This document shows, one piece after another, positions 1,547 to 60,860 of a DNA stretch of 64,000 nucleotides. The notes below the pieces were generated by a model. It had not been told where the DNA came from, ran no database searches, and worked only from the letters and a program-made list of their open reading frames with translations. The DNA lies in assembly GCA_030390025.1 (NCBI GenBank), contig CM059432.1, positions 47,866,001 through 47,930,000 on the forward strand. Reading direction: 5' to 3'. The position numbers and the translations under genes are program-made. The stretch is from Squalus acanthias (taxonomy: Eukaryota). Each line of letters opens with the position of its first letter. Position 1 is the first letter of the stretch.

Positions 1547-1830
1547 CACTCGGACATGCTGCAGTCAACGAGCTGCCTCTGGCCGGTGCAGACCCAGCTC
1601 GACTCAGCCTGTGATCGCACACTGCTGGTAAGGCAGCCACAGACTGGCACTCTGCATCATAGCGCTACTGCTCCCAAGCGACCCGAGAGGGAAAGAGCAG
1701 CCAGCGATCCTGCAGGTCCCTTCAACATTCCTTTAACATTCACCTGAACTGAAACCAATGCCGAGCCCGCCCGTAACACAGGAGTGGGTGTGTCGACTGA
1801 TCTGACTGCAGAGAGCCCGGTCGGGATTTT
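1547..1830 (-). promoter_or_regulatory. Putative 5'UTR/proximal promoter of the PSKH gene
   Basis: CpG-rich non-repetitive segment directly upstream of the ATG, with CCAAT (~1755) and a GC-box-like CCCGCCC (~1766). TSS not determinable. Confidence 0.5.
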
Positions 1831-2489
1831 TCCAACATATAAATTCCAGGATCTGATGCCACCTTTATGTCAACGTGTGGATCAACTCCATTGCCGAGCA
1901 GCACCAGACCATAATAATACCATTGTTTCCAGCATTTCCTGTTCTAATTTTAGATTTCCAGCATCTGCAGTATTTTGCTTTTATAATACCAGCAACAGGC
2001 ACCAATTACATTGGCACCGTAAACGGGACCAATTGATGACACTACCCACACCAACATCCCAACCTACACAAACTGACGCCTCACCCTATACAAATCAACA
2101 CTTACACCACAACCTCCACATCACTGGCTGGTATGCAGACTGCCACTTCAATGAGTCAGTTATTTTCAGATGAACCGCTTAATCGGGGTTAATTGCCAAG
2201 TCCACATAGGAAACAGAAAAACTTAATATTGATCACTGGGGCAGAAGGAGCTAATCATTTGTGATTGTTTGTCCCATCAGGGAAGTCTATTAGCCAGGCC
2301 CCCACAGGTTGGCTTTGTTCTTCAAGAGGGTTTGTGACTGGAAACAAGTTTCTTGAAGAATAACTTGATGTCTTTGAACCTGATGCGATTAGCGGCTGTA
2401 TTTAATTGTTAATGCTTTTTTATAATATCCCTTTGCCTCAGTTTAGATTTCAAAACAGAGAGTGAGTATTACTGTTACCAAATTCTAGG

Positions 2490-3875
2490 ATCCTTAGTGA
2501 ATTTCTGCGTTACCAAATAGTTGATGAGCTGGAGCTAGTGGAATCACTCTGTGAATAACCAGCATCACATATAAGCTGCTACTCACTGATTGGCGGGATG
2601 TAACAAGTGGTGTTCCCCAGGGATTTGTATTGAGGCCTTAACATTTCACCATATATATGTTAATGACTTTCATGAAGGAATAGAGAGTTGAATACATTAA
2701 GTAGGAGGCACAGTAAGTTGTGCGGATGGGAAGAGAAAGTTATAAAGGGACATAGACTAAGTGAGTGGGCAAACTATGGCAGATGGAGTTCAATGTGAGG
2801 AAGTGTGAGGTCATCTACTTTGTATCTAAGAGAGTCAAATTGTTTCTTTTCTAAATAGTGAGACAAGGAGCTGTGGAGGAGCAAAGGGAGTGAGGGCCTG
2901 GAGTTTCTGCTCAATTGTGCTACTTTTTCAGCGCAATTGCCTCGATATCATCATAACTGGTGCAAAAGATCGCAGAATTTTACGCGCAAATTGTGTTCAG
3001 CGCAACTCAAGTTTCCACGATCTTTTGCGCTAGTTTTAAAAACATTGCGCTAGAAGCAGGCCCCTCCCACAAAACTGCCAACGTCCCCCAGAGTGAATTA
3101 ATCACCATTGCAAGTTTCTGCTAATTGCGCTTGTTTGCAGGCCTTTGAGGAGGCTCCAAAAATGAAGCTGGATCGTTTGGGTGTAAGGACACTAATAGGT
3201 ACGTTTTGAAAGCTTTTGAATGAATTAAAAAAAATACTAAGGAACTGACTACTGTACCCCAATCTAACTGGAAAATAGTTTTGTATATTTTTTTAAAGTC
3301 ATTTTCAGTAATTTAAAATCGGGTTACTCACAGGTGGTGGGTGGATTGACACTGATTTAAATGCTTATTTTTTGTGATAAACTCATTTTCAGCTGTAATA
3401 ATAAAAATTTACCAAGTTAATACTCTTAAATATATCAAGGAATATTTTTTAAAGCATTTTTTTAAATTACGTTTTAAAACACTGCCCGATTCCGCTGGTT
3501 CATGGCAGATTTTGCATTTGGGGATATGCAAATGAGTTTGAGCAGAAACTCAGTGGCAAAAAAAGTTTTCAAGATGAGCGTAATTTTGGGTGCAATTTTC
3601 ACCAGAATCGCTGATTGTGCCCAAAGCGGAAACTGTGTCTATGTACAAAAATTACTAAAAGCTAGTGCACATGTACAAAAATTAATCAAACAGGCTAATG
3701 GCCTTTATCTCAAGTGGACTGGAATTCAAAAGTGAGGAAATGATGCATCAGTTGTACAGAGCCTTGGATAGACCCCATCTGGAGTACTGTGTTCAGTTTT
3801 GGGCACAGAACCTCAGGAAGGATATATTGGCCTTGAAGGGGTACAGCCCAGATTCACTAGAATGATACCAGGACT
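2490..3875 (+). mobile_element. Degenerate CR1 RT fragment split by a DNA-transposon insertion
   Basis: SGVPQG, EWAKLWQMEFNV and RPHLEYCVQFW-like coding remnants on both sides of 2895-3641. Confidence 0.8.
2895..3641. mobile_element. Non-autonomous Harbinger-like element (~745 bp)
   Basis: Interrupts the CR1. Weak TIR (GAGTTTCTGC / GCGGAAACTG), GC-rich arms with repeated GCGCAA/TGCGCTA motifs, AT-rich core. Confidence 0.6.
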
Positions 3876-3882
3876 TTTTAAA

Positions 3883-6800
3883 AATTCGTTCCTGTGTTGT
3901 GAACGTCGCTGGCAATGCCAGCATTTATTGCCCATCCCTAATTGCCCTTGAGAAGGCGGTGGTGAGCCGCTGCCTTGAACCACTGCAGTCTGAGAGGTGA
4001 AGGTACTCCCACAGTACTGTTAGGCTGGGAGTTCCAGTATTTTGACCCAGGGATGATGAAGGAACGGCGATATATTTCCAAGTCAGGATGGTGTGTAACT
4101 TGGAAGGGAACTTGGAGGTGGTGGTGTTCCATGCGCCTGCTGCCCTTGTCCTTCTAGGTGGTAGAGGTCGCAGGTTTGGGAGGTGCGGTCGAAGAAGCCT
4201 TGGCAAATTGCTGCAGTGCATCTTGTAGATGGTACACACTGCAGCCATGGTGCACTGGTGGTGGAGAGAGTGAATGTTTGAGGTGGTGGATGGGGTGCCA
4301 ATCAAGCGGGCTGCTTTGTCCTGGATGGTGTCGAGCTTCTTGAGTGTTGTTGGAGCTGCACTCATCCAGGCAAGTGGTTGGTATTCCATCTCACTCCTGA
4401 CTTGTGCCTTGTAGATGGTGAAAAGGCTTTGGGAGTCAGGAGGTGAGACACTCACCGTAGAATACTCAGCCTCTGACCTGCTCTTGGAGCCACAGTATTT
4501 ATGTGGCTTGTCCAGTTAAGTTTCTGGTCAATGGTGAACCCCAGAATGTTGATGGTGGGGGATTTGGCGAAGGTAATGCTGTTGAATGTCAAGGGGTGAT
4601 GGTTAGACTCTCTCTTGTAGGAGATAGTCATTGCCTGGCACATATATTACTTGCCACTTATCAGCCCAAGCCTGAATGTTGTCCAGGTCTTGCTGCATGC
4701 GGGCATGGATGACTTTATTATCTGGGGAGTTGCGAATGGAACTGAACACTGTGCAATCATCAGTGAACATCCCCACTTCTGAATTTATGATGGAGGGAAG
4801 GTCATTGATGAAGCAGCTGAAGATGGTTGGGCCTAGGACACTGCCCTGAGGAACTCCTGCAGCAATGTCAAGGGGCTGAGATGATAGGCCTCCAACAACC
4901 ACAACCATCTTCCATTGTGCTAGGTATGACTCCAACCAGCAGAGATTTTTCCCTCTGATTCCCACTGACTTCAATTTTACTAGGGCTCCTTGATGCCACA
5001 CTCAGTCAAATGCTGCCTTGATGTCAAGGGCTGTCACTCTCACCTCACCTCTGGAATTCAGCTCTTTTGCCCATGATTGGACCATGGCTGTAATGAGGTC
5101 TGGAGCCGAGTGGTCCTGTTGGATCCCAATCTGAGCATCGGTGAGCAGGATATTGGGGAGTAAGTGCCACTTGATAGCACTGTCAATGATACCTTCCATC
5201 ACTTTGCTGATAATTGAGAGTGGACTGTTGGGGCGGTAATTGGCTGGATTGGATTTGTCCTGCTTTTTGTGGGCAGGACATACCTAGGCAGTTTTTCACA
5301 TTGTCAGGTAGATGCCATTGTTGTAGCTGTACTGGAACATCTTGGCTGGAGGTGTAGCTAGTTCTGGAGCACAAGTCTTTAGCTCGACAGCCGGGATGTT
5401 GCCGGGGCCCATAGCCTTTGCTGTATCCAGTGAGGTCAGCCATTTCTTGATATCACGTGGAGTGAATCGAATTGGCTATAGACTGGCTTCTGCGATGGTG
5501 GGGACCTCAGGAGGAGGCCGAGATGGATCATCCACTCGGCACTTCTGGCTGAAGATGGTTGCAAACGCTTCAGCCTTGTCTTTTGCATTCGCGTGCTGGG
5601 CTCCACCATCATTGAGGATGGGGATGAACATGGAGTCTCCTCCTCCCTTTAGTTGTCCACCACTATTCACAACTGGATATGGCATGACTGCAGAGCTTTG
5701 ATTTGATCCATTGGTTGTGGGATCACTTACCTCTGTCTATAACATGCATGTAGTCCTGTGTTGCAGCTTCCCCAGATTGGCACCTCATGTTTATGTACGC
5801 CTGGTGCTGAATCTTCTACACTCCTCATTGAACCAGGGTTGGTCCCCTGGCTTGATGGTCATGGTAGAGTGAAGGATAGACTGGACCATGAGGTTACAGA
5901 TTGTGGTGGAATACAATTCTGCTGCTGCTGATGTCCCACAACGCCTCATGGATGCCCATTTTTGAGCTGCTAGATCTGTTCTGAATCTATCCCATTTAGC
6001 ACGGTAGTAGTGCCACACAACATGATGGAGGGTGTCAAGACGGGACTTCGCCTCCACAAGGGACTGTGCAATGGTCAGTCCTACCAATACTTTCATGGAC
6101 AGATGCATCTGCGACAGGAATATTGGTGAGTCAAGTAGGTTTTTCCCCTCATGTTGGTTCTCTCACCACCTGCCACAGGCCCTGTCTGGCAGCTATGTCC
6201 TTCAGGACTCAGCCAGTAGTGGTGCTACTGAGTCACTCTTGGTAATGGACAATGAAGTCCCCCACCCAGAGTACATTCTGTGCCCTTGCTACCCTCGATG
6301 CTTTTTCCAAGTAGTGATCAACATGGAGGAGTACTGATTCATCATCTGAGGGAGGGTAGGTGGTAATCAGCAGGAAATTTCCTTGCCCATATGCTTGACC
6401 TGAAGCCATGAGACTTCATGGGGTCCAGAGCCAATGTTGAGTACACTCCCTTCCCAACTGTACTGCCATTTCTGCATCGGTGGGACAAGACATAACATAA
6501 CATGGGGTCATGAAGGAGCCTGGGACATTGGCTGAAAGGTATGATTCTGTGAGTGTGACTATGTTAGGCATTCCCAATTTTGGCACAAGTCCCCAGATGT
6601 TAGTGAGGAGGACTTTGCAGGGTTGACTGGGCTAGGGGTGCTTTTTTCATGTCCAAAGCCATTGCCTAGGTCAATGCCAGGTGGTCCGTCGGTTTTATTC
6701 TTATTATTGCTTTTCATAGCGGCTAGGCCTTTAAGAGTGAACCACGTTGCTGTGGGTCTGGAGTCACATATTGGCCAGAGCAAGTAAGGATGGTAGATTT

Positions 6801-7005
6801 CCTTCCCTAAAGGAGAACCAGATGGGTTTTTACAACAATCCGGTAGTTTCATGGTCACTAGCTACTAGTTTTTTTATCCCAAATTTAATTAACTGAATTG
6901 AAATTCCCCAGCTGCTGTGGTGGGATTTGAACTCATGTCTCCAGATTATTAGTCCAGGCTTCTAGATTACTAGTGCCACTAATATAACCACTATGCTACC
7001 ATACC
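3883..7005 (-). mobile_element. Near full-length degenerate CR1/L2-group LINE (APE + RT) with a tRNA-like 5' head and no recognisable ORF1
   Basis: Frameshifted ORF2 pieces: NIWGLVPK (APE start, ~6600), PWFNEEC, ALDIKAAFD, GVPQGSVLGP, MFTDD. 3' tail at ~3885-3960; SINE-like head at ~6715-7005. Confidence 0.9.
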
Positions 7006-7686
7006 CTTGTTAAATTACAGATCAGCCATGATGGAGGTCTGATGAAGTCTTTCTTTCTTTCATCCATCTAGTTGGGCTGTTGCTGATTTAAAATGAGTAG
7101 TAGGAGTTGGGAGCAACAGCTGACAGCAATAAAAACAACAAATTCTTGAAATACACAGCAGGTATGTTAGACTATCTTTTTTTACAGATCCTAACATATT
7201 TGTTGGAGACACTTCTATCAATTTTGATGAAGGGTATATACCCAAATATTAACCTATACAAAGAAAGGTCAAACCTGAATTTATATAGGAATGGGAGGAG
7301 GCCATTCAGCCCATCAAACCAGTTCCATCATTCAATGAGATCATGGCTGATCTGTAACTCAACCCCATTTACCTGCCTTTGCTTCCCAGAAGCCACTATT
7401 TGAAACAGTTAAGGCAGTTTTTTTTTTTTTTACAACATCAAAACAAAGGCAAACCTTTTTCTGAAGTAACTTTGAAAACCAAAACAATGCTTAATATATA
7501 CAAGGGGAAACCTGAACTATACAATACAGCAATACAATGGCAGGAACCAACTTAAATTGTGATTTATCACATCTCAGCAGCACTGAAAGGGAGATCCAGG
7601 TGTGGCATTGAAAGGGAGAGCGAAGAGCAGGCCTGAGGGAAGGGAGCTGGAGTGGTGCTGATCTTCATCTGTGAGTGCGGACACAC

Positions 7687-8441
7687 GGCCCGTATTTTCC
7701 AATCCCTACAGGTGTGTACGAGCTGTGTACACACCCGTAGGGACCTCGCAAATGCCGGTTTCAGGCATGCGAAGCGCATGCGCTGAAAATCGGCATTTCC
7801 AATCTGTCAAGAATGCTCTTGACAGATCGGACGCCTGCCTTAGAGAAGGGCCTCCGCGGGTGGAGAGTTCCACTTTTTGCAGAACCTCCGCCCGCTGAAA
7901 TCCCTTAAAAATCTTACGCCTGGTAAAAGCAGGCATAAGGCCTACTTTTACCAGCATAAGAGTTTAAGAAAGTAAAAAAAAAAATTTTTCACTCATTTAT
8001 AATTTAAAAATACTTTTAAAAAAGGTAAGTTTATTTTTAGCCCCGTAAAAAACTTTAATTATTTTTTTCAAAAAATAATTTAAAAAAAAATATTTAATTT
8101 AATGTAATTTTAAGTCATTTTAAAAAGGTGATTTAAAAAAAAAATTATTTAATGTTTTAGTGTCTTTTTTCAGTGATCTCCATTCATACTTTTGACAGGT
8201 CTATCTGTCAAAAGTATGAAGGGAGATTCCCTTCTCCCATTGGCTCCCCCTGGCCCACATGATCCCAGGGACACTTGCGAACCGCATGCACCCGTGGGAT
8301 ACCTCGGCCTTGTGCATTTCGTTGTGGAGAGGCCCAGGATCGGAAATGGCCGGACCTCAGGAGCCCTCAGGTAAGGGCGTAGATTTTTTCCCGATAGGAG
8401 GCATCCGCACACAGGAAGCCTCCTATCGGAAATTATGGGCT
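7687..8441 (+). mobile_element. Hairpin-rich non-autonomous Harbinger-type element, family X copy 1 (755 bp)
   Basis: TIRs GGCCCGTATTTTCC / GGAAATTATGGGCT; close reverse-complement match to 49435-50174. Confidence 0.9.
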
Positions 8442-8689
8442 GTGAACACTGATCTGAAAATGCTGATGTCCAAGTGAAATGCAGATGGTTAGCAAGCTCT
8501 CTCCCACCACTAGCCTCCAACCTCTCCCTCTGTTGCAACCTTTGTTTCTATTTTATCTATACTATTACGGTCAGTGCTCCTTTGAATGTTTCTTTCTTCT
8601 TGCTAAACCATCCTACATGCTTTGCCTCCTTCAGGCATCTTTATTGTGCTGAAATGAAGACCCATTATACATTCTCCTATTCCAAATAG

Positions 8690-8985
8690 ATGTGGATCAG
8701 TTGGTAGCACTCTCACTTCTGAGTCAGAAGGTTGTGGGTTCAAGTCCAACTCCAGAGACTTAAGCACAAAAATCTCCAGTGCAGTACTGAGGCAGTGTTG
8801 CACTGTCAAAGGTGCCGTCTTTCAGATGAGACGTTAAACAGTGGGATCTTGCTGTGCACAAATTGGCTGCCGCATTTCCTACATTACCACAGTGACTACA
8901 CTTCAAAAGTACTTGGCAGTAAAGCGCTGTGGGACATCCTGAGGTTGTGAAAGGTGCCATATAAATGCAAGTCTTTCATTCTTTC
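8690..8985 (+). mobile_element. DeuSINE-like tRNA SINE with L2-type tail (internally deleted)
   Basis: Head and tail match the full copy at 47880-48322. Confidence 0.85.
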
Positions 8986-9236
8986 TAAGGACTTTGAACC
9001 TATGTACCTCCCTCATTCTTTCATTCCTTCTAGAATCTTTTGACTTTTAAAACCCATGGTCAGCATCACCTAAGGGTATATTTCCCTCTGTGTAAAGTTA
9101 AAGAAAAATTATCTTACTAAACTGTCATTGTAAACCAATCACAAATTCTATTACCGGATTTGGCTCATTGCCTCCTTTAATCTTTTCAACCATGATAGTG
9201 TCTTGCACTGTGCACCTTGGTCCTTCCTTCACCTTG

Positions 9237-9957
9237 GGGGTGATTTTGCCAATGGGGAGCTTTTGGAGGCGGGACTCCCACTTGTCAGGTTTCAGTCCCG
9301 CCTCCAACAACTTCTGGCCAACCCATGCTATTTTCCCTTGATTGCTCTGTGAAGCTGTCAAACAGTGACATTCTCTGTAGTTTGATGAGGTCTTGAATTC
9401 AAGACCTTATCAAACATCTTTCTTTTGCAGAAATGAGATGGTTGTTGCATTGGAGAATGCAACGGCCATCTCTCATCTCCAACGCGGAGGCGCGAGACTC
9501 TCCGCATACCCACCGACTGAAGCCTGCAGGAAGAAACAAAGGTAAGTACACTTTTACTAACACTTTACACTTACCTCAGATATTCACCTCTCCACAACTT
9601 GCACCCATCACTTACCTTCACACCACACTTTTGCACCCCCCCCGACCCCCGCAGACCCAGTACTCGCCTCGCTGACCTGGCGGGTTTCGGAGCCTTCAGG
9701 AAGCCCGCACTTGTGAGGGCAAAAAGGGGATAATCCTATTTTCTGCCTGTTAACTACCTGTTAACAGGCAGTTAATAGGCTTTAATTCCTTTCTGCCTCC
9801 TAGGAGACGGGACCCGGCGCGGGATGGCTGCCCGCTTCCTGGGAAGATGGCATGGAGGTGGGTTGGGGCGGGTTGGGCACCCACCCCCAAATTCTGCCAT
9901 TTTTCCGGCAGTTCCGCCTCCGTACCCACCTCCCCAGGGCTGGCAAGATCGTACCCC
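9237..9957. mobile_element. Harbinger internal-deletion derivative (721 bp)
   Basis: TIR GGGGTGATTTTGCCA / TGGCAAGATCGTACCCC and TTG TSD on both sides. The minus strand at ~9465-9530 resembles Myb exon 2 of the copy at ~51100. Confidence 0.7.
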
Positions 9958-11699
9958 TTGTTTTCTCAATCTTTGAAAAATCACTAGCAGTACCTATGTG
10001 TTCATTGTTACATTTTGTAGTTGCTTTTCAACGAATTTCATCTTTGTCTTACATTTTATGACCTTAGGGCTGCAAATTAAGGACCCTCAATTGCCATGGG
10101 CTTTGCAGATCCCAAGAAAGTTTGCAATTGAATAAGTTCAATTATTTTGAAATTCAGAAGATTTGCTTGCTTGAACTTTCAACAATTTAAATAGGGGGCT
10201 GTTGTCACCCAGTGGCCAACTTTAAAAGTTCAGGTAAACATCAGAATTAAAGCGGCCGACAAACCCAAACTTAGAAAACTCGATTGGACCAAGTTAAATT
10301 AAGTTTTGTCTGATTTGGTTTTGCATTGTGAGCAGTGCAGTCATAGGAAAAATCTAATGAAAATGGTGCTAAATGATTACATGAGGTGGAGATATGACAC
10401 GTACACCATCAAGAAAGAAATCTTCTGGTTGTTATATTAGAAATCTTCATATTTAACCATGTTGCTACACATCACCAAAGGAATTCTTCACTCCCCTGTG
10501 TGTGATCTTTGTCATTACTTGGAGAGAGAGAGTATATATTTCAAAGTTAAAAAAATGTACAGTACAAAAAGGCTTTGGTCAGTATTTGTACACTGTAACA
10601 ACATTGGGTATATTTATCCAGACTTGTGTCTTGTACTTTTAAGTTTGAATGGAAATTAATGTTTGGGATAGGAACAGACACATTGCATTGTAGACGTAAT
10701 ACGGAATGTGGCTGACTATGTGGGACAGGACAAGGGGTGGTACTGAATTCTGTTTCTATTCTACTCAGTTGTTTGCTTTTTAAAAAATAATTGATGTTTT
10801 ATTTTACATAAATTACTATGCTGTGTTTATGTTCCATATTGTATGTCTGTGTTGGTCATCTGGGCTTTTCCTTGCGTTATGTCTGGGTCTGTTGTAGACT
10901 AAATGATAGAGAATGATTGCCAGGATTAGTCAACAACTCCATTATCATTGTGTCATGTGACTACAGGGATGGTAGAAGGACCTTGGTCCTTTTGCGTCCA
11001 GCAATTCCTATGTTCCTAACTCATTACTGCCTACCCGTTTCTCCATCACATTACTTACTGGGCTGAGAACATAACTATTGTGAAAAATGCTTTAAAAATT
11101 GCCCTGTACTGCAACCCTCTCTCACCATGAGTTCTTTAATACTTTGTATGCAGTGATTTTTCCTTTTATTCCCTTTATGCTCATTTCTGTGCTGTTTCCA
11201 AATGTGTATTTTCATCTTATTGTCTTTATAATATCACTTCATACATTTATGAATCAACTTCCTTTCCTATTTGCTTAAAACAGTTAACAGTTAATTGTTT
11301 CTTTTCTATCGTTAATTTAATCATTTAGGTCTTGGCTGCTGCTATATATATATTTTATAAATCTGATTTTCACTCTCTCTCTAGAAAATCCTATAGTTAT
11401 TCAATTTTTCATCAGTGCTTCTTCACCCCCGCCGCCCCAACCCCCGCCGTACCTCAGTTTCATTTTCTAATTTATCCTCAGTTCTTCCTCATTACCTGAA
11501 CATTCAGCTTCCCTGAACACTTGTTCTCATTTCATTTATTTTTTCTCCAGCTGGAATAAACCATACTGAATCTAAGGACGTTCTGATCACTGTGTTCAAG
11601 GATATCCCATCTTCTAAATTTTCCAGCATTTCAGGCTCTCAATTAAACACCAGATAAGTGTGGCCTCTTCCCTTCTTCCCCTTTAGCAGCTCCCTCCAC

Positions 11700-12199: not shown

Positions 12200-12940
12200 G
12201 GGCCGGATATTCCGATCCCTACGGGTGGGTACGCGCTGTGTACCCACCCGTAGGGACATCGGAAATGCCGGTTTCAGGCATGCACAGTGCATGCGCTGGA
12301 AACCGGCATTTCCAATCTGTCAAGAAAGCACTTGACAAATCCTCTGGCTGCCCGGGAGCAGGGCCTCTGCGGGCGGATAGTTCCGCTTTTTGGAGACCCT
12401 CCGCCTGCAGAAAACCCTTACAATTCTTGCGCCTGGTAAAAGCAGGCATAAGGCCTGCTTTTACCAGGATAAGAGTTGAAAAAAAGTTTATCTGATTTAT
12501 CATTTAAAAATACTTTAAAAGGTAAGTTTATTTTTAGCCCCGTAAAAAACTTTAATTCTTTTTTTCAAAAATTAAAATTTTTGTTTAAAATAGTTAATTT
12601 ATTGTAATTTCAAGTCATTTTAAAAATGTGATTTAAAAAAAAAAATTATTTAAAGTTTTACTATGTTTTGGGGTGATCTCCATTCATATATTTGACAGGT
12701 CTTCCTGTCAAATGTATGAAGGGAGATTCCCTTCTTTGATTGGGTCCCCATGGCCCACGTGATCCCAGGGACGCTGCGAACTATCTGCACCTCTGGGATA
12801 CGTGGGCCCTGCGCACCTACAGTTCGGAGAGGCCCAGCATCGGAATTGTGCGCGTCCCGGGAGCCCTCAGGTAAGGGCGCGGATTTTTCCAGATCGCAGC
12901 CCTCCGCCCGCGGGAGGCCTGCGATCGGAATATCTGGGCC
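12200..12940 (+). mobile_element. Family X non-autonomous Harbinger-type element, copy 2 (741 bp)
   Basis: 18-bp TIR GGGCCGGATATTCCGATC / GATCGGAATATCTGGGCC; CAT TSD at 12197-12199 and 12941-12943. Confidence 0.92.
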
Positions 12941-16405: not shown

Positions 16406-17168
16406 GGGCCAGAAATTCGGTTTTCCGGCTTCCTGCAGGTGCAAGCATCGCGCGTGTACTTACCTACCGCGCCTGCCGTTGTGTTTTGGGCCCACGAGAA
16501 CTTCGGGTCCTGGGCCTCCTGCAGCTGCCGGCGCGCAGTGCTTGTGTGTACCAGGGGCGCAGTTAGTTTGAAGCGTCCCCTGGGATCACGTGGGCCATGG
16601 AGAGCCAATCCTAGCAGGGCATTTTCATTCATAGAGTTGACAAGAAGACCTGTCAAATCTATGAATTGAAATCGGCCCCAAAACCACACTTAAACTTCAA
16701 ATAATTTTTTTTTAAAAATCACATTTTTAAAATAACTATAAGTTAATTAAATTAACTACTTTAAACAAAAATTTAAATTTTTGAAAAATTAATTATACTT
16801 TTTAACTGTGCTAAAAATAAACTTACCATTCTTTAAAGTATCTAAAAAAGATAAACCTGTTGAAAAATGTTTTAAATTGTAATTAATTAACCACTTACCT
16901 TGTTAAAAACGGGTCTTGCGCCTCCTTTTTAAAAGCGCAGCTTCTTCAATACTTACCTTCCCGGAGAAACCTGAAAAAAAAACGAAGTTTGCTGCGTGCG
17001 CGCAGCCTCTCCTGCGCACGTGGTTCACCTCTGAACCCCTCCCTTCACGAGACCGGAAGTTCCGGTTTCCCGCACATGCGCAGTGCATGCAGGAAACCGG
17101 CACTTCAAGTGGCCTTACGGGTGAGTACACAGCGCGTACTCACCCGACAAGCGCCGAATTTCTGGGCC
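16406..17168 (-). mobile_element. Family X element, copy 3 (763 bp)
   Basis: TIR GGGCCAGAAATTCGG / CCGAATTTCTGGGCC; flanks ATT/AAT; same hairpin series in reverse order. Confidence 0.9.
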
Positions 17169-20686: not shown

Positions 20687-21313
20687 GCAGAGGCAGCGGA
20701 CCTGAGCGGGAGCGAGAGCGGAGGCTGAACAAATAAAGAGCGCGGCAGAGCAAGGCCCGAGAGCAGAGGTAGCGGACCTGAGCGGGACCTGTGAAAGAAA
20801 AAAATATCAAAGTGGGACATCACAGGAAAGCAGCGAAAGAACAACAAAAAACAAGGAGTGACGTCACAGGAAAGCAGGGAAGTGATTGGTTGGTCAGTAT
20901 TTCTCTCTTTTTCTTGGGCATTGGTTTAAATTAAGAGCCGGGATTAAAAACTAAGGGGGAAAAATTAGGTCGCGCCCCGTTTGGGGCGCAAATATCGTCT
21001 GGACGCAAATATTAGCGCCTGGCGCTAATTATCGCCACTGACTGGAAACTTCACTTTTACCGCCCCGGGAGGTGAGTGGAGCGCTAAATCAGGCGCTGCA
21101 CACCTGTCTTAAGGCGCAAAGGCCGAGCCGTGAGGCGCTAACTCAGCGCGCGAGCGCAGCGCAGCTGCTGCCAGTTAGCGAGGGAACACAGACACACTGG
21201 CGCCGGCCAGTTCTTAAAGCGGGGAGGGCCAACTTGCTCCCCAGCCACACCCTGCTCATTGCAGCCTTGAATCTCGGCCTGGAGAGACCTGTGAATCCAT
21301 TTTGCTGCCAAGG

Positions 21314-23133
21314 ATGGAGAGGGTGAGAGAACGAGCTCATCGCTTCACCGAGCGGGCCTTGGATGCTCTGGTTGGCGCGGTGGAGCGCAGAAGATGTATA
21401 CTCTTCCCTGAGAGTGGCAGGAGGCCTTTGCCACGCGAGTACAGAAGAGTGTGGAGGGAGGTGGCTCAGAGCGTCTCCTCCAGGAGCATGGTGCCCAGGA
21501 CCCATGTTCAATGCCGCAAAAAGTTCAACGACCTCACTCGGGTCGTCAGGGTGAGTGGCTTTTTCTCAATACCTCTCCATCCCTCCATCTCAACCTCACT
21601 CTATGGCCAGAGGGTCTTAAAACCACAATGCACAACACTCATCCAACACCTATGGCCCTTTCATGAAACACACACACACATTCCACACTTTGCATACAGT
21701 AAGGGCTATTCACCTCTGGGAGGCACATCAGGCAAGACCATGGCTGCATACAGTAAGGGCTATTCACCTATGGGAGGCACATCAGGCAAGACCATGGCTG
21801 TATATTTACTCAGATGCTGTCCTTTTTCTTGCAGGCCAAGCTGGCGCATAATCGGAGACAGCAGCAACGGACAGGTGGAGGGCGGCCTCAGCTGCAACCC
21901 CTCAGCGATCTTGAGGAGCGCGTCCACAGGATTGTGGCAAGCCGGGTGATCGGTCCCGTCACCACTGGAGACGCCGACCCCGTTCTGGACAGCAATGGTA
22001 AGGTCATCACCTTTTTGTCCTCTGTCCTTCCACTTGTCCCTCACAACACCAGCCTTTGACACTTTCAATCCAACTTGCTAACTCGCTGCACTTATTCCTC
22101 CCTTACTGCCACCCTGTCCTCACGCTAAAGCCACTCTTGTACCTCCCTGCTTTCAGATGGTGATTCACCAGCTGAGGAGACGGGCCCTGAAGCTGCCACT
22201 GGGAGTGAAGCTGCAGCCGAGGAGGAAGAGGAAGCCGGAGCATCAGTGCCACCCTCTCCCGAGGAAGCCCATGCCCACACTGGGAACACGCCTTCCCTGG
22301 AGGGGAGCAGGGGAGAAGGGTCTGATGAGGGTGAAGCTCCAGGACCCAGCAGGCTGCAGCAACGCCATGGGGGTAGGGAAGAACGGGGGCCTTCTCCCCA
22401 GAGGGAGAGTATGCCAGAGACTCATACTGCAATGGACGCAGAGGAGGAGCGGCTGATCGCAGAAATGAACACCCAGGCGGTGGGCATGCACACTGAGCTC
22501 ATGGGTGCAGTGGGAAGGGTGCCCGAATGCATTGAGTCACTGGCAAGGAGTGTGGAGCACTTCGCTGTAGCACAGGCGGATGCCACACTAACGCTTAGTG
22601 CTGCAATTCAGTCACTGGCTGCCGTGATCCCATCTCTGACTGCTCTCATGCAGACTCAGATTGAGGCCACGCGAGCACAGACTGCTGCCAACCTCGATGG
22701 TTTGTTCACATGTCCCCGGGGCTCTCACCGCGCCGCAGCAGGCCAGCAATCTGTTCTCCAGCAGATTGCTCCGGATGCTGAAGTGCTGCCCCGTGGGAGT
22801 GCCAGTGTGTTGGGCGAGCAGGGAGTTGCTGTCCTCTCTCACGATGACAGCATTCCTGCTGCCAACACTGTCACTTCTCCACTGCACTTGCCACCGCCTG
22901 TAGGACAGACTGCTGCCGCCCATGCAGAGTTGGTGCAGTCTGCAGCCGGGCCCTCCAGGCTCAGAACTGGGCGAGGCCGTCCTTCAGGGGCATCTGCACT
23001 GTCAGGGTCTGACGATCAGCAGCCTTCCACCAGCCTTGCTGCAGCCACTGAGGTCCCATTACGGAGGAGCAGTAGGGTTAGAAGGGGGGAAGTGCGCAAG
23101 GGAAGGAGATCACCCTCGAAGGGCAAAAAGTAG
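21314..23133 (+). CDS. Harbinger Myb/SANT-like DNA-binding protein, 3 exons (21314-21550, 21835-21997, 22157-23133), 458 aa
   Basis: RFTERALDAL...WREVAQSV...QCRKKFNDL trihelix motif and RTGGG motif. Canonical GT-AG introns (phase 0 and 1) join into one 1377-nt ORF ending in a basic NLS-like tail. Confidence 0.9.
21691..21800 (+). repeat. 54-bp tandem duplication in Myb intron 1
   Basis: TGCATACAGTAAGGGCTATTCACC...GACCATGGC occurs twice with one mismatch. Confidence 0.95.
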
Positions 23134-23445
23134 GAGGTGTGACAAAATGCTGGTCATTTTTTTATTAAAGGCCGAGGTTCGTGGTCCAACTTTTGTTTAG
23201 TGTTTTGGACATTATCTCCAGGTTGTGAGAACCAGTTATGTTATTGACTGTTTTTTTGTGTTTATTTCTATGAGTTTGTCATGAGGAAATGACACACACA
23301 GAGTTTGTAAAATAAATAAGTTTTTGTATTCAAAATATACATGTTTGGCGTTTGGAATTATTGGTGCCTTGGCCGGCTTAGGGGTTGCGTGCTGGGTTCA
23401 TTGATGTTGTTAGCAATGGCAGAAGCCATTTCCACAGCAGGGGCC

Positions 23446-24606
23446 CTAGAAGCGGCTTGCTATTAGCTGTTGACGGACGGCCCTTGCAGTTTCACCATTG
23501 TGGGCCGCCCTCCCGCCTTGGTGCTGCTGATGATCATCCTCCTCGTCCTCTTCCTCCTCTTCCTCCTCCTCCTCTGGTGGTGCTCCAAGGCCTGGTGGCA
23601 TTGGCTGGGTCCTGACGATTGCCATGTTATGCAACATGCAGCACACAACTACGAAGTTGGATACTCGTTCAGGCGAGTACTGCAGGGCTCCTCCAGAATG
23701 GTCGAGACAGCGGAACCGTTGCTTCAGCACGCCGATTGTGCGCTCAATGATGTTCCTGGTAGCTTGATGGCTCTCATTGTACCGCAGCTCAGCAGGGGTG
23801 TTGGGCGTACGGAGCGGTGTCATCAGCCAGGTGCTCAATGGATACCCCTTGTCCCCGAGAAGCCAACCAACTGGCTGATGCGGTGCCTCGAAAAGTTCTG
23901 CCACAGTAGTCTGGCGCAGGATAAAAGCATCGTGGCAGCTGCCAGGATAGTGGGCATTGACAGCGAGTATCAGCTGTCTGTGGTCACAGACCAACTGAAC
24001 ATTCAAGGAATGGAACCCCTTTCTGTTCCGGAATTCCTCGACATTCTCATGTGGAGCACGCAAAGCCACATGCGTGCAGTCAATGGCGCCCTGCACCATG
24101 GGGAAGCCCGCTATCCTCGCAAAGCCCAGAGCGCAGTCACGCTGCTTGTCTGGGGTCATGGGGAAAGAGATGAACTCTCGTCTCCTTTTAAAGAGGGCAT
24201 TTGTGACCTGCTGGATGCAGCAATGCACCGCGAACTGGGAGATATTGGCGAGGTCCCCAGCAGCAGCTTGAAATGAGCCAGTAGCATAGAAGTTGAGAGC
24301 CACTGTGACCTTCACTGCCACCGACAGAGACGTCCTGGACCTCAGTTGAGGCTGCAGATCTGGCTGCAGCAGGTGGCAGAGCTCAGTGACCACCTCCTTG
24401 CTGAATCGCAGCCTTCGCAAACACAGCTCCTCAGACATATGAATGTAGGAGAGCTGTTCACGATATACCCTGGGAGGGTAAGCTCTCCTGTACATACGCC
24501 TGTTGGCCCTCCTCCGTCTGGCCATCATTGCCACTCTCTCTCTGCGTCTCTGTGTCCTCCGATTCAGCTGGAGCAGGACGACGCCCCCAATCAGTGCAGC
24601 CCCCAT
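23446..24606 (-). CDS. Harbinger (HARBI1-like) DDE transposase, 386 aa, intronless
   Basis: GAIDCTHV, NRKGFHSLNVQ, LGDKGY and IERTIGVLKQRF motifs with the catalytic D/D/E intact; acidic tail. First ATG at 24606 (the ORF track begins at an upstream TTG). Confidence 0.96.
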   Translation of the reverse strand: MGAALIGGVVLLQLNRRTQRRRERVAMMARRRRANRRMYRRAYPPRVYREQLSYIHMSEELCLRRLRFSKEVVTELCHLLQPDLQPQLRSRTSLSVAVKVTVALNFYATGSFQAAAGDLANISQFAVHCCIQQVTNALFKRRREFISFPMTPDKQRDCALGFARIAGFPMVQGAIDCTHVALRAPHENVEEFRNRKGFHSLNVQLVCDHRQLILAVNAHYPGSCHDAFILRQTTVAELFEAPHQPVGWLLGDKGYPLSTWLMTPLRTPNTPAELRYNESHQATRNIIERTIGVLKQRFRCLDHSGGALQYSPERVSNFVVVCCMLHNMAIVRTQPMPPGLGAPPEEEEEEEEEDEEDDHQQHQGGRAAHNGETARAVRQQLIASRF

Positions 24607-26122: not shown

Positions 26123-29100
26123 GTGGGGGGGGAGGGATACGCTGAGCGGAAATTAAAAAAGTCAAAGAAAAATGAGAAGGCAAAAGGGCAGTGTAGCGAT
26201 AGGGGTAATGATAACCAGAGTGTGACAGGAAGGGACAGAACGTATACACATAAGAGTGCATCAGAAAGAAGGGTCAGAGTAGGGAAAAATGGTAAAAAGA
26301 CAAAATTAAAAGCTCTATATCTGAATGCATGCAGCATTCATAACAAGATAGATGAGTTGACAGCACAAATAGAAGAGTTGACAGCACAAATAGAAATAAA
26401 TGGGTATGATCTGATAGCCATTACAGAGACGTGGCTGCAAGGTGACCAAGGCTGGGAACTGAATATTCAGGGGTATTTGCCATTTCGTAAGGATAGGCAG
26501 AAAGGAAAAGGAGGTGGTGTAGCTCTGTTAATAAGGGATGAGATCAGTGCAGTAATGAGAAATTATATTGGCTTAGAAGATCAAGACGTAGAATCAGTTT
26601 GGGTGGAGATAAGAAATAATAAAGGTAAGAAGTCACTGATGGGAGTGGTCTACAGGCCCCCAAACAGTAGCCACACTGTAGGACAGAGTATAAATCAAGA
26701 AATAATAGAGGCTTGTAAGAAAGGTTTGGCTATAATCATGGGAGATTTTAATCTTCATATTGATTGGACAAAGCAAATTGGCAAAGGTAGACTTGAGGAA
26801 GAGTTCTTAGAGTGTATATGGGATGGTTTCTTGGAACAATACATTGTGGAGCCAACCAGGGAGAAGACTATTTTAGATCTGGTAATGTGTAACGAGACTG
26901 GATTAATTAATGATCTCGAAGTGAAGGATCCTCTTGGGAAGAGTGATCATAGCATGGTAGAATTTCAAATTCAGTTTGAGGGTGAGAAAGCTAGGCTCAA
27001 ACTAGTGTCCTGAACTTATACAAAGGTAATTACAAAGGTATGAAGGCAGACTTGGTTAAAGTGGACTGGGAAAATATATTACAGGGTAAGACTGTAGAAA
27101 AGCAGTGGCAAACATTTAAGGAGATATTTCATAACTCTCAGCAAAGATATATTCCAGTGAGAAAGAAAGACTCTAAGAGAAGGATGAACCAGCCGTGGCT
27201 AACTAAGGAAGTAAAGGATGGTATCAAATTGAAAACAAAAGCATACAATGTTGCGAAGAATAGTGGAAGGCCAGAGGATTGGGAAATTTTTAAAAACCAG
27301 CAAAGGACGACTAAAAAAATGATAAAGAGAGAGAAGATAGCTTATGAGAGTAAGCTAGCAAGAAATATAAAAACAGACAGTAAGAGCTTCTACAGGTATA
27401 TAAAAAGGAAGAGAGTAGCTAAAGTAAATGTTGGTCCCCTAGAGGATGAGTCTGGGGAATTAATAATGGGACACAGGGAAATGGCAGAGATTTTGAACAA
27501 ATATTTTGTATCGGTCTTCACGGTAGAAGACACTAAAAGCATCCCAATAATGGATAATCAAGGGGCTATTGGGGTGGGGGGGGGGGGAAACTTAAAACAC
27601 TCACTATCACTAGCGAGAAAGTACTAGGCAAACTAATGGGACTAAAGGTGGACAAGTCCCCTGGACCCGATAGCCTGCATCCTAGAGTCTTAAAAGAGGT
27701 GGCTGCAGAGATAGTGATGCATTGGTTGTAATCTACCAAAATTCCCTGGAGAGGTCTCAGCAGACTGGAAAACCACAAATGTAATGCCCCTATTTAAGAA
27801 AGGAGGGAGACAGAAAGCAGGCAACTATGCAGACAAATTTGCTGGAGTTCTTTGAGGATGTAATGAGCAGGATGGATAAAGGGGAACCAGTAGATGTCGT
27901 GTATTTGGATTTCCAGAAGGCATTCGATAAGGTGCCACATAAAAGGTTACTACACAAGATAAGAGCTCACGGGGTTGGGGGTAATATATTAGCATGGACA
28001 GAGGATTGGCTAACTAACAGAAAACAGAGAGTCGGGATAAATGGGTCATTTTCAGATTGGCAAACTGTAACTAGTAGGGTGCTGCAGGAATCAGTGCTGG
28101 GCCTCAACTATTTACAATCTATATTAATGACTTGGATGAAGGGACCAAATGTAATGTAGTCAAATTTGCTGATGATACAAAGATAGGTGGAAAAGCAAAT
28201 TGTGCGGAGGACGCAAATAATCTCCAAAGGGATATAGATAGGCTAAGTGAGTGGGCAAAAATCTGGCAGATGGAGTTTAATGTGGGAAAATGCAAGGTTA
28301 TCCACTTTGGTAGAAAAAATAAAAAAACAAATTATTATTTAAATGGGGAGAGATTACAAAATGCTGCGGTACAGAGGGATCTGGGGGTCCTTGTACATGA
28401 ATCACAAAAAGTTAGCATGCAGGTACAGCAAGTAATTAGGAAGGCAAATGGAGTGTTGGCCTTTATTGCAAAGGGAATCGAGTATAAAAGTAGGGAAGTC
28501 CTGTTACAACTGTACAGGGCGTTGGTGAGACCACACCTGGAGTACTGCGTACAGTTTTGGTCTCCTTATTTAAGGAAGGATATACTTGCATTGGAGGCAG
28601 TTCAGAGAAGGTTCACGAGGTTGATTCCGGAGATGAAGGGGTTGTCTTATGAAGAAAGGTTGAGCAAGTTGGGCTTATACTCATTGGAGTTTAGAAGCCT
28701 GAAAGGGGATCTTATTGAAACATATAGGGCCGAAAATTGATCCCGGGACGCGAGAGTACGCACTGCGTACTCTCGCGTATTCCCACTCCAATTGCCGGTT
28801 TTCTGCATGCCCTGCGCATGCGCTGAAAACCGGCAATTGCTCTTCTGAAAAGGGGGCGGGTCCTGGGTGCATCGCGTGCGCGCTACAGGCTGCGCGCACG
28901 CTGTGCACTTCATGCTTTGGACGCGCAGGTAAGTAGGGAAGATTTTGGAAATGTAAAAAGGAGGAGTAAGACCCGCTTTTAAGAAGGTAAGTAGTGAATT
29001 AAGTATTTTTTTGAATTTTTTTTTACAGGTATATCTTTTTTAGAGACTTTAAAGACAGGTAAGTTTATTTTTATAACTTTTTAAAAGATTTTAAATTTTT

Positions 29101-29710
29101 TCAAAAGTTTAATTTTTTATTTAAAATGGTTAATTTAATTAACTATACTTATTTTATTAATGTGATGGTTTTTTTTTTAAATTTAATTGAGGTTTAGCTG
29201 TTATTTTGGGGGGGTGTAAGATTCATAGATTTCACAGCAGGTCTGTGAAACTTATGAATGGAAGATGGTGTGCTGCCATTGGCTCTAACTGAGTCACGTG
29301 ATCCCACAGCTCGCACGAATTCACTACGCCGCTGGGATACGCAAGCCCAGCACAGCTGATGTCTGGAACATCAAGTTCGTGCGAGCTGGATCTGAAAAAG
29401 CACAAGCGAGGTGAGACATCGCGGGGAAGGCTTACCCCCGCGGGAACAGAGCGAGATCAATTTCTGGGCCATAAGATTCTGAAGGGGCTTGACAGGGTAG
29501 ATGCAGAGAGGATGTTTCCCCTCGTGGGGGAATCTAGAACTAGGGGGCATCATTTCAGAATAAGGGGGCACCCATTTAAATCGGAAATGAGGAGAAATTT
29601 CTTCTCTCAGAGGGTTGTGAATCTTTGGAATTCTCTTCCCCAGAGAGCTGTGGAAGGCTGGGTCATTGAATATATTTAAGGTGGAGATAGACAGATTTTT
29701 GAATGGTAAG
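26123..29710 (+). pseudogene. CR1 ORF2 (APE endonuclease + RT), disrupted
   Basis: AITETW, GDFN, SDH, YLDFQKAFD and KFADD motifs. Frameshifts, an in-frame 21-bp duplication (26354-26395), an apparent deletion at ~27828, and an insertion at 28727. Confidence 0.92.
28727..29470 (+). mobile_element. Family X element, copy 4 (744 bp)
   Basis: 16-bp TIR GGGCCGAAAATTGATC / GATCAATTTCTGGGCC; ATA TSD. Removing it restores the CR1 reading IETYKILKG. Confidence 0.95.
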
Positions 29711-49434: not shown

Positions 49435-50174
49435 GGCCCGTAATTTCCGATAGGAGGCTTCCTGCGTGCGGATGCCTCCTAGCGGGAAAAAATCTATGCC
49501 CTTACTGAGGGCTCCCGAGGTCCGGCCATTTCTGCTCCTGGGCCTCTCCTGGTGTGCGCGCGCAGAGACCCAGGTATCCCCGGGGCGCAGGCGGTTCGCA
49601 AGCGTCCCTGGGATCACGTGGGCCAGGGGGAGCCAATGGGAGAAGGGAATCCCCCTTCATACTTTTGACAGGTAGACCTGTCAAAAGTATGAATGGGGAT
49701 CACTGAAAAAAGACACTAAAACATTAAATACATTTTTAAAAAACCATCACGATTTTAAAATGAGTTAAAATTACATTAAATATTTTAAACAAAACTGTAA
49801 TTTTTTGAACAAAGTAATTAAAGTTTTTTACGGGGCTAAAAATAAACTTACCTTTTTTAAAAGTATTTTAAAATTATAAATGTGTGAAAAAAAATATTTT
49901 TTAACTTTTTTAAACTCTTATGCTGGTAAAAGCAGGCCTTATGCCTGCTTTTACTAGGCGTAAGATTTTTAAGGGATTTCAGCGGGCGGAGGTCCTGCAG
50001 AAAGCGGAACTCTCCACCCGCAGAGGCCCTTCTCCAGGGCAGGCGGATGATCTGTCAAGAGGATTCTTGACAGATCGGAAATGCCGGTTTTCAGCGCATG
50101 CGCTTCCGCATGCCTGAAACCGGCACTTGCGAGGTCCCTACGTACACACCCGTAGGGAGCGGAAAATACGGGCC
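49435..50174 (-). mobile_element. Family X element, copy 5 (740 bp)
   Basis: TIR GGCCCGTAATTTCCG / CGGAAAATACGGGCC. Confidence 0.92.
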
Positions 50175-59039: not shown

Positions 59040-60860
59040 CAAGCATACGAACATACGAACAATGACGGAGAGGTAAAGACCATCTGGTCCATCAAGCCTG
59101 TCCTGCACAATTGCATTACCTTGCGTATCACAACATATAGCTACCCCACCCAAAACCATGTAATCTCCTGGTAGAGGCAAAAAAAACAGATAAAAACCCA
59201 GGCTAATTTAGGGAAAAGAAAATCTGGGAAATTCCTCTCCGACCCATCTAAGTGATCAAAACTAGTCCAGGAGATCACTCTGGCCTTGAATTCCCTGCAG
59301 TTCCTACCTTCTGTAAGAGGTGATCCCCAACCCAGCCAGAAACAGGTCCAGCTCTCGCTTGAAGGAATTCAGCGAATCAGCATCCACCGCACAAGGTGGC
59401 AGCCTATTCCAGAGATCCACTATTCTCTGGGAAAAGAACCACCTCCTGACATCTAACCTAGATCTGGCCTTATGCAACTTAAAATTGTAACCCCTGGCCC
59501 TTCCTAACCTATTTACTTGGAACAAACTGTCAGCTGGAACACAATCTATTCCCTTCATTATCTTGTAAACCTCAATCAGATCACCTCTAAGTCTACGCTT
59601 CTCTAAAGTGTAGAGTCCCAACTCTTTTAGCCTATCTTGATAACTAAGATGCTTTAGTCTGGGAATCAGTCTAGTGGCCCTCCTCTGCACCCTCTCCAAA
59701 GCCTCAATATCACCCGCCAATATGAGGAGACCAAAACTGGACACAGTATTCCAAGTGCGGCCTGACTAAGGTCTTGTACAAGGACAAAACAGAGTACCTC
59801 GTCTTGTACTCAATTGTCCTATGGATACACCCCAACACCCTATTTGCTCCAGCTATCGTTCCACAGTAGTGCTCATGTAACTTTAAGGATGTATGCACTA
59901 GAATGCCCAAATCTCTTTCTATCTCCACCTTCTTTAATGCCATTCCCTGAAGGGTGTATGAATGTTGAGCATTTGCCCTGCCCACATGCATAACACTGCA
60001 CTTATCTAAGTTATACATCGGCCCAGAAATTAAACATCGATGTTTCCCGCGGGGGTAAGGATTCCCCGCGATATCGCACTCCACGCCTACCTTTTTGTTT
60101 GGGGCCCACACGAACTTTAGTTTCAGAGCCTCTCCCTGTTGCAACCGTGCAGTGCTTGCGTGACCCAGAGCGCAATTAGTTCGTGCGAGCTCTGGGATCA
60201 TGTGATTCAGTTAGAGCCAATGGCAGCACACCATCTTTCATTCATAGTTTTGACAGCAAGGGCTGTCAAAGCTATGAATACTACAAACCCCCAAAAGAAC
60301 AGCTAAACCTCAATTAAATTTAAAAAAAAAGCCATCACATTAATAAAATAAGTATAGTTAAATAAATTAACCACTTTAAACAAAAAATTAAATTTTTGAA
60401 AAAATTTAAAATCTTTTTAAAAGTTATAAAAATAAACTTACCTTTCTTTAAAGTCTCTAAAAAAGATAAACCTGTTGAAAAAAATTAAAAATAACACTTT
60501 ATTAACTACTTACCTTGTTAAAAGGGGGTCCTACGCCTGCTTTCTTTATGTATAAAATCTTCACCACTTACCTGCGCGTTCAAACCTGAAAAAAAAACTA
60601 AGTGCACTGCGTGCGCACAACCTGTAGTGCGCACGCGGTTCACTTAGGAACCGCCCCCTTTGCAATACATGAAGTGCTGGTTTCCCGCGCATGCGCAGTG
60701 CATGCAGGAAACCGACAATTCGGGACCTAATACGCGAGAGTACACAGTGCGTACTCTCGCGTATTAGGTTTAATTTTCGGGATCTGCCTGAAGCAGACGA
60801 GCATCAGCGACAGTCCTAATCTCGGTATCGTCTGCAAATTTGCAGATTGTGCCCCCAACA
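59040..60860 (-). mobile_element. CR1 3' fragment split by family X copy 6
   Basis: KFADDT at ~60840, RPHLEYCVQFW, and FFSQRIVDLWN. Confidence 0.9.
60020..60781 (-). mobile_element. Family X element, copy 6 (762 bp)
   Basis: TIR GGCCCAGAAATTAAAC / GTTTAATTTTCGGG (2 nt apparently lost); ATC TSD; closest to copies 3 and 4. Confidence 0.9.

Follow-up and report, generated by a model that had tools for sequence, protein, structure and literature searches.

The hairpin stems of Family X, a transposon of the Squalus acanthias genome, have kept their pairing while their sequence changed, and this symmetry is maintained only in the transposing lineage of the element and not in its inserted copies. 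The observation of stem compensation is real and well controlled, and it concerns an element of a known kind (a PIF/Harbinger MITE) with an unusual anatomy and history. With about even confidence, we propose that the matching stem changes arose in the jumping lineage alone, through repair synthesis after excision in which one arm is copied onto the other. It is an old question how MITEs of the cut-and-paste kind come to number tens of thousands and remain compatible with a changing transposase. Here it becomes testable, since the subfamilies form a ladder that can be dated, intact partners form a matching one, and one branch is very young. The stems report on the fate of the element during transposition.

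Identity, anatomy and target sites of Family X

Family X is a non-autonomous, non-coding PIF/Harbinger element (a Tourist-like MITE), which is very abundant and recently mobile. The majority sequences of eight subfamilies are 744–765 bp long with imperfect terminal inverted repeats (TIRs) of 14–18 bp, and two chance open reading frames of 151–166 codons run across copy edges in the window, which is the whole 64,000-nucleotide stretch of DNA that was analysed. In the 3.7-Gb genome assembly that was scanned, its copy number is about 37,000 (range 10,000–95,000, older relatives counted in), based upon four interior-bearing copies in 40 fixed-position 10-kb stretches (400 kb); genome searches with the window copies gave 1,275–10,735 first-look candidates per query. 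A preliminary description of this DNA had reported six copies, all of which were found in their places, with lengths of 740–765 bp. It counted at least two subfamilies among them, which falls short of the five that are present in the window and the at least nine that are known overall, and its assignment of the element to PIF/Harbinger is borne out by the coding partner that has now been identified. The six copies are as follows.

7687..8441, plus strand: copy 1, subfamily c1, 5.2% from the c1 majority
12200..12940, plus strand: focal MITE copy (subfamily c2) with an exact flanking CAT duplication
16406..17168, minus strand: copy 3, subfamily c3, 2.9% from the c3 majority
28727..29470, plus strand: copy 4, youngest subfamily c4, 0.1% from the majority, exact ATA duplication
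49435..50174, minus strand: copy 5, subfamily c1, 6.7% from the majority, deletion within stem 1
60020..60781, minus strand: copy 6, subfamily c6, 1.8% from the majority, stem 1 lengthened to 19 bp, its two terminal Gs missing

The surrounding DNA of the window is rich in fragments of LINE-type reverse transcriptase and endonuclease. Two broken Harbinger relics, 66–70% alike, lie at about 45500–47700 and 50300–53000, with copy 5 between them. Among four other loci (L024, L071, L087 and L168), X copies are nested in other X copies, within the AT core and stem 5, and there is also an X insertion into an apparent end of a Harbinger of the GGGG family.

The anatomy of the focal copy is given below, together with a repeat of copy 4 in the last line.

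12200..12217, plus strand: left TIR, complementary to the right TIR at 16 of 18 bases
12216..12256: stem 1, 17 bp with a GTAC core, common to the autonomous partner; GTA(A/C)G at element position 30
12258..12316: stem 2, GCCGGTTT arms flanking a GCATGC dyad, common to the partner
12318..12337: stem 3, TGTCAAG/CTTGACA, restricted to old subfamilies
12369..12408: stem 3a, GCGGGCGGA arms, in c1 and c2 only, with a different stem in young subfamilies
12432..12468: stem 4, CTGGTAAAAGCAGGC, decaying in young subfamilies
12469..12675: AT-rich core without strong stems, the slowest-changing part of the ladder, with no clear partner match
12676..12727: stem 5 (TTCATA stem), MITE-only, the stem retained and its sequence replaced over time
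12752..12808: stem 6, GGCCCACGT and ATCCCAGGG arms, MITE-only, perfect in old subfamilies and absent in the youngest
12892..12926: stem 7, its right arm overlapping the right TIR
12923..12940, minus strand: right TIR
29307..29388: new 13-bp perfect inverted repeat in copy 4 (29307–29319 and 29376–29388)

The stems that had been named in the preliminary description are present (7703–7743, 12216–12256, 60725–60769, 8176–8227, 12432–12468 and 12258–12316), and the G-C to C-G swap that it noted between copies 1 and 4 in the TTCATA stem is real. The constant, ordered set of stems that it described holds for stems 1, 2 and the TTCATA stem, which are found in all eight subfamilies, but not for the others: the CTGGTAAAAGCAGGC, GTCAAG and GATCCCAGGG stems decay in young subfamilies and new stems arise there, the repeat of copy 4 having originated in the youngest subfamilies while stem 6 decayed. 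Comparison with the partner indicates that the left arm and loop of stem 4 are partner-like and that its right arm is absent from the partner. The AT core holds a conserved AGGTAAGT at 12520. The TTCATA stem of copy 4 contains two mismatches, passed over in the preliminary description, that are common to 27 of the 30 c4 copies; in three younger-looking copies these have been re-matched, two adjacent left-arm changes making the stem perfect again. A foldback MITE, in which the whole element would be one hairpin, was ruled out, the element consisting of local stems apart from its short TIRs.

The predicted fold of the focal copy, as DNA, has an energy of −204 kcal/mol versus −98 ± 5 for 20 shuffles (z = −20). 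For the eight subfamily majorities z lies between −10 and −28, about equally on both strands, and the predicted folding weakens from about −200 to −135 kcal/mol toward the youngest, still mobile subfamily. The motif GTA(A/C)G is over-represented in seven of the eight subfamilies and lies near both TIRs in MITE and partner, and it recurs in the partner-shared stems 1–2. Splice-donor-like GGT(A/G)AG motifs are seen at window positions 12520 and 12868; further sites occur in c3, n136, c6 and c4, the number rising from one in n95 to five in c3 and in n136 (plus strand), and at least one is homologous to the left end of the partner. These may be relics of a leader or instances of the GTA(A/C)G DNA motif. 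The ends of both elements are also rich in what we take to be housekeeping-promoter-like sites (GCGCATGCGC, CGGAAGT, TGACGTCA, CACGTG, CCAAT and a GC box).

The target-site duplications of Family X are 3 bp long and mostly AAT or ATT, the preferred target being AWT inside an AT-rich palindrome. Although the 3-bp duplications reported earlier are exact in only three of the six window copies, they are clear at the level of the family, where an exact duplication flanks 23 of 30 c2, 17 of 30 c4, 24 of 30 L166a-type and 10 of 22 scored c6 copies, and most of the inexact ones are off by one base. Inexact duplications occur despite a copy divergence of 0.3–1.2% (13 of 30 c4, 6 of 30 L166a-type and 12 of 22 scored c6 copies), and nine of the 13 in c4 are inexact at the middle base, six reading AAT/ATT. 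Those in young copies fit the carry-over of donor-site bases, provided that cleavage is staggered inside the duplication, as proposed for mPing in the available part of its description (PMC4561436). Three of four public runs cover the copy-4 element and two contain joints at this site that skip 748–749 bases and resemble an empty site, these runs being contigs whose RNA status is guessed.

Compensation between subfamilies and its absence after insertion

The eight subfamilies that were sampled can be ordered by age into a ladder, in which each is closest to its age neighbours. Eight natural copies were used as genome queries with 40 full or near-full matches each, 30 of which were fetched; the removal of a duplicate locus (L040) and the addition of window copy 5 gave an alignment set of 240 copies. 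Based upon these top-ranked matches, with similar values for the unranked query copies, mean divergence from the majority is 9.1% in n95, 6.1% in c1, 3.9% in c2, 3.1% in n47, 2.8% in c3, 2.3% in n136, 1.2% in c6 and 0.3% in c4, and a ninth type (L166a-type, 0.66%) falls between c6 and c4. The oldest and the youngest subfamily are 47% identical.

Neighbouring subfamilies were compared in pairs, the stems of the older one serving as the reference for scoring the younger. Counted as neighbour contrasts (not by R-scape or by full ancestral reconstruction), in which adjacent pairs are non-independent and some of the doubles lie within replaced segments, the 657 stem pairs comprised 521 that were unchanged, 85 with a one-sided change, 13 doubly changed without pairing and 38 doubly changed with pairing kept, versus 5.8 pairing-preserving doubles expected under independence. 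In slid registers, where the pairing partner was moved by 1–3 bases, such doubles made up 14 of 280 changed pairs, compared to 38 of 136 in the true register (p = 2e-10). Without the deepest step and the replaced segment there were 19 versus 46 other changes (slid registers, 5 versus 150), and the MITE-only stems 5–6 considered separately had nine versus 20 (slid registers, 2 versus 69; p = 2e-4). Compensation across subfamily majorities, for which a covariation check had been suggested, is above chance by these contrasts and this control. The idea that symmetry outlasts sequence also stands, as paired changes go beyond the controls and the stems keep their slots through about 50% divergence; stem 5 of older relatives occupies the same slot with a different sequence.

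Changes that improve symmetry exceed the random expectation in existing stems (23 of 53 versus 9.2), and a general symmetrisation was not found outside them, either in linkers (6 of 100 versus 3.7) or in the AT core (1 of 50 versus 0.3). The extension of stem 1 in c6/L209 is a block-like symmetrising change, the right TIR and stem 7 were altered together in a c1 haplotype, and the new stem of c4, assembled over several steps, was completed by five right-arm changes within 7 nt. At one pair in c1 there are 16 copies with T-A, four with C.A and seven with C-G, the one-sided state preceding the double swap, and in amplified partner masters stem 1 shows C.C and A.A states between two perfect forms. 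The TIRs behave similarly: positions 7–18 of the left and right ends covary, and they match the other end of their own subfamily better than those of other subfamilies (10.25 versus 6.9 of 12; 2 of 40,320 permutations).

Positions in stems 5–6 change at half the rate of the unpaired positions next to them (35/415 versus 73/456, p = 7e-4), and the rate in the AT core (119/1245) is equal to that of these stems. A broader statement, that stems are conserved twice as well as the background, was weakened, since that background included replaced ends and the AT core is equally slow. A conserved TGACAG site was rejected as the cause of stem 5, since the oldest relatives lack it in this stem and c4 has an altered form.

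In the inserted copies, stems and loops mutate alike. Among the 240 copies, private non-CpG mutations at G/C were seen at 305 of 17,987 stem and 516 of 33,961 loop positions (p = 0.13), and private mutations at A/T at 183 of 17,096 and 417 of 40,813 positions, respectively (p = 0.59); private CpG mutations are slightly faster in stems than in loops (p = 0.018). Private non-CpG doubles number four versus 443 singles, and CpG doubles 33 versus 36 expected. The excess of double changes is confined to c1, where it consists of two swaps; as each is common to seven copies, they come from sub-lineage masters. No strand bias was detected, G-T numbering 21 and A-C 15 among singles (p = 0.41), and nine and eight inside stems.

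The transposing lineage has a rate about ten times that of dormant copies. Distances from the common ancestor, measured in the MITE-only interior, increase from 0.07 (c1, c2) to 0.62 (c4) in exact inverse order of age, with an age gap of 0.03–0.05 behind these distances and non-CpG subfamily ages that span 0.053 to 0.002. Raw interior differences total 228 over six ladder steps of about 358 columns each, and the AT core alone shifted by about 0.45 from c2 to c4, versus an age gap of about 0.05. In comparison to private changes, those of the lineage include fewer transitions (67/228 versus 285/741) and more C-G transversions (27/228 versus 42/741), and they are clustered in three of the six steps, homopolymer-adjacent alignment being able to inflate clustering. 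As only 11 of 111 four-fold sites of the partner transposase differ between c3-like and c4-like types, the MITE moved about three times further than its partner. If the tenfold rate holds, host-clock dates of subfamily splits in DNA transposons would be far off.

The autonomous partner

The partner of Family X is a 4.5-kb Harbinger encoding a transposase and a Myb protein, which shares both ends and stems 1–2 with the MITE. Among 20 transposase loci that were extended to 8 kb, 13 had X-type TIRs detected at both ends, 11 of these with a spacing of 4.5–4.7 kb; of the remaining loci, one X-type end was detected in two, and four belong to a family with GGGG TIRs. The sequence shared with Family X comprises stems 1–2 and the last 40–100 bp. 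Partner copy L201 matches DDE_Tnp_4 (PF13359, E = 2e-43) and Myb_DNA-bind_5 (PF13873, E = 4e-14), and in one annotated copy the Myb/SANT exon and the transposase are on opposite strands. A transposase frame of at least 330 codons is open in 40 of 53 partner left-end sequences, some of which repeat one locus. The left end of the MITE corresponds to the region upstream of the transposase gene, and no stems were found in the non-coding interior of the partner. The Harbinger load of the genome is very large and was recently active.

The first 117 bp of c3, c6 and c4 are 93%, 93% and 90% identical, respectively, to three different partner types, and at positions 118–255 the resemblance of c6 and c4 to the matching partners falls to about 60%. 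For the AT core and stems 5–6, only short low-complexity matches were present among those listed for 13 autonomous sequences. No partner of the old subfamilies n95, c1 and c2 turned up among the transposase loci examined, because the family search favours the most intact ones. We infer from these comparisons that one MITE interior persisted, with repeated renewal of its ends from the contemporary partner or exchange of ends with it. Based upon the shared ends and the match of young subfamilies to open-frame partners, it is likely that the partner mobilises Family X in trans by means of its two proteins.

Between partner copies L204 and L211 the ends diverge by 0.34–0.41, versus 0.12–0.23 in the non-coding interior. 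A simple gradient of mutation from the ends was considered and rejected, as it is broken by the synonymous sites of Myb exon 1: about 500–730 bp from the right end of the partner, 16 of 25 four-fold sites of this exon differ, compared to 5 of 52 for the last exon of Myb, and amino-acid changes are few. The divergence of Myb exon 1 may reflect the exchange of this module for that of a diverged family, or else selection that favours nucleotide change. In another partner copy (L205, element positions 3620–3783) there is a 164-bp near-perfect foldback insert with 63-bp arms, and apparently the same foldback sequence interrupts an old X relative (L342, near 7230–7280).

A search with the Pfam family DDE_Tnp_4 gave 63,885 first-look candidates genome-wide, with many open frames among the best 150. 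One full-length Harbinger of another family lies in the window at 20955–25118, with a GGGG TIR, a TAA duplication, Myb and transposase frames, and short GCGC-rich hairpins of its own at each end. It was rejected as the partner, its ends being unlike those of X.

Explanations and comparison with known systems

In the explanation that we prefer, the Myb-like protein of the partner would bind subterminal sites of the GTA(A/C)G type, and its transposase would cut at the TIRs and excise the MITE. Strand-annealing synthesis would then refill the donor gap, and the displaced single strand could fold, whereupon template switches or mismatch repair would match imperfect arms, and the two TIRs, to one another. 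The same error-prone step would raise the substitution rate, occasional switches of synthesis to the partner would import partner ends, and the cores of stems 1–2 would be kept as binding sites, likely via selection among elements. A single repair process would then account for the rapid change, for the re-matching of arms and TIRs and for the capture of ends, only in lineages that jump. This explanation is favoured because compensation is present between subfamilies but not after insertion; because the lineage is fast, with the shortage of transitions, the surplus of C-G transversions and the partial clustering noted above; because symmetrising changes are block-like (stem 1, stem 5, the new c4 stem, and the c1 TIR with stem 7); and because inner TIR positions match their own other end and subfamily ends track contemporary partner types. 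In the accessible parts of the sources, break repair in yeast has a mutagenicity 1000 times that of replication, turns quasipalindromes into perfect ones and involves template switching (bioRxiv 2023.08.09.552703), and error-prone repair is described at DNA-transposon sites in grasses (PMC5023962). Against it, these precedents are from yeast and plants, the symmetrising excess is limited to existing stems with the partner interior being stemless, and the slower change of stems 5–6 relative to adjacent loops is not predicted by neutral symmetric copying alone. In addition, many compensations passed through amplified one-sided states and the c4 stem was built stepwise, both of which fit stepwise selection.

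Selection among elements is the main rival explanation, to which we give tentative credence and to which the ssDNA/cruciform scaffold and the dimeric sites of the preliminary description belong: DNA hairpins, cruciforms or dyad protein sites would raise excision, re-copying or protection, and those copies, among thousands, that restore pairing would found the next subfamily, base by base. The persistence of stems in their slots, the halved rate of stems 5–6, the restriction of symmetrising changes to stems, the one-sided intermediates before double swaps (the c1 pair, and C.C/A.A in partner stem 1) and the overlap of the new stem with the slot of the decaying stem 6 all agree with it. So do the over-representation of GTA(A/C)G near both TIRs and, in the portion of the report at hand, the binding of a 9-bp subterminal motif by the Myb-like protein of Harbinger3_DR (PMC9710019). 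However, predicted folding weakens toward the youngest subfamily, which is still mobile, mismatches that strongly destabilise the stems were amplified, and selection alone gives no speed-up of neutral change such as that of the AT core. As the inner TIR bases match the other end of the MITE itself and not that of the partner, a fixed protein specificity does not explain them. Selection and copying during repair are not mutually exclusive, and perfect pairing is inferred not to be needed for jumping. A stronger claim, which we regard as rather unlikely, is that a vertebrate DNA transposon amplifies via a folded single-stranded copy of itself, in rounds that mutate about ten times faster than the host clock, re-match arms and TIRs and import partner ends, the hairpin array being selected for copying efficiency. 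If true, this would offer a working explanation for the greater number and longer persistence of MITEs relative to their masters.

It is improbable that the lineage evolved in a different, faster-evolving host or vector, from which it came back into this genome several times, and that the ladder, its speed and the compensation have an outside origin. Near-identical c4 sequence is present in runs under six organism codes (share of words 0.53–0.80), but these may be close relatives, and the uneven divergence of the partner (Myb exon 1, 16/25; transposase, 11/111), which suggests mosaic sources, has to be set against the short terminal branches of c2, n47, c3 and n136 (0.015–0.036), the presence in the same genome of intermediates for the ladder steps, and a joint arrival of MITE and partner that would have to occur at least six times, in order. 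The structured RNA suggested in the preliminary description, in which the element would be transcribed and its fold selected for element or host, is highly improbable and was not supported by the analysis. Strong predicted folding and real covariation would suit it, as would the bias of the splice-donor-like motifs towards one strand and the location of the left end upstream of the transposase gene in the partner. However, no Rfam family matched the window at gathering score (the focal copy had six weak miRNA-like matches, the best with 26.7 bits versus a cut-off of 99), and G-T and A-C states are balanced, with no G-T excess on either strand. Further, C-C and A-A states were amplified, stems are lost at the loop rate with no constraint after insertion, and the TIRs, 3-bp duplications and DDE partner imply a DNA intermediate. 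No GT..AG joint was observed in three public runs, which are contigs with a guessed RNA status and so do not count for or against splicing. The case provides a warning for RNA discovery, as strong, relatedness-controlled covariation can occur in a DNA element without signs of RNA function. Lastly, arm-to-arm gene conversion, which had been named as a possible refutation of maintained pairing, is scarcely credible as a background process keeping stems symmetric in all genomic copies. It is said to be known for inverted repeats generally, but in the 240 copies private mutations are equal in stems and loops and doubles are within independence; only a form tied to transposition survives.

Chompy of crocodilians is an abundant, Harbinger-type, MITE-like element of vertebrates that tends to form secondary structure. 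The GTA(A/C)G motif of Family X is possibly, on our assumption, equal to the 9-mer published for Harbinger3_DR of zebrafish, an element reportedly described by Sinzelle et al. in 2008. Like the partner of X, Harbinger3_DR has a transposase and a Myb-like gene, and the two systems are also alike in a short subterminal motif (Myb-bound in Harbinger3_DR) and a palindromic target preference, the central triplet being CWG in Harbinger3_DR and AWT in X; serial hairpins or compensation like those of X were not found in the parts of these papers that were available (PMC9710019, PMC9179366, PMC3016246). In the literature covered, mainly papers outside subscription and exclusive of Dfam and Repbase, no account was found of Family X or of lineage-restricted stem compensation in vertebrate Harbinger MITEs. 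Harbingers were not detected in the elephant shark in one survey, the available part of which urged that other cartilaginous fish be checked.

The mPing element of rice, with Ping/Pong, resembles Family X in being short, non-coding and high-copy, with a 3-bp duplication that has a free middle base and ends in common with a two-gene autonomous element (PMC4561436, in part). In contrast to mPing, X is longer (about 750 bp), with five to eight local stems and an AT core, and it has a long age ladder with compensation, none being found for mPing in the same portion of that source. The hypermutation, perfected palindromes and switches to diverged templates of quasipalindrome correction in yeast (bioRxiv 2023.08.09.552703, PMC4215184; accessible sections) are like the X ladder, although the yeast case involves an engineered break and not the donor site of a vertebrate transposon, as proposed for X. 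As far as the available text of the two reports extends, the P-MITEs of Anopheles gambiae (PMC1562414) and Gnome/Elf/Goblin of Aedes (PMC3814204) share ends of about 100 bp with their masters, have unrelated interiors and emerged successively, as in X, and gap repair with template switching is proposed there for the origin of MITEs. These mosquito cases concern the birth of MITEs, whereas the interior of X persists through at least eight subfamilies with its ends refreshed and its stems re-matched.
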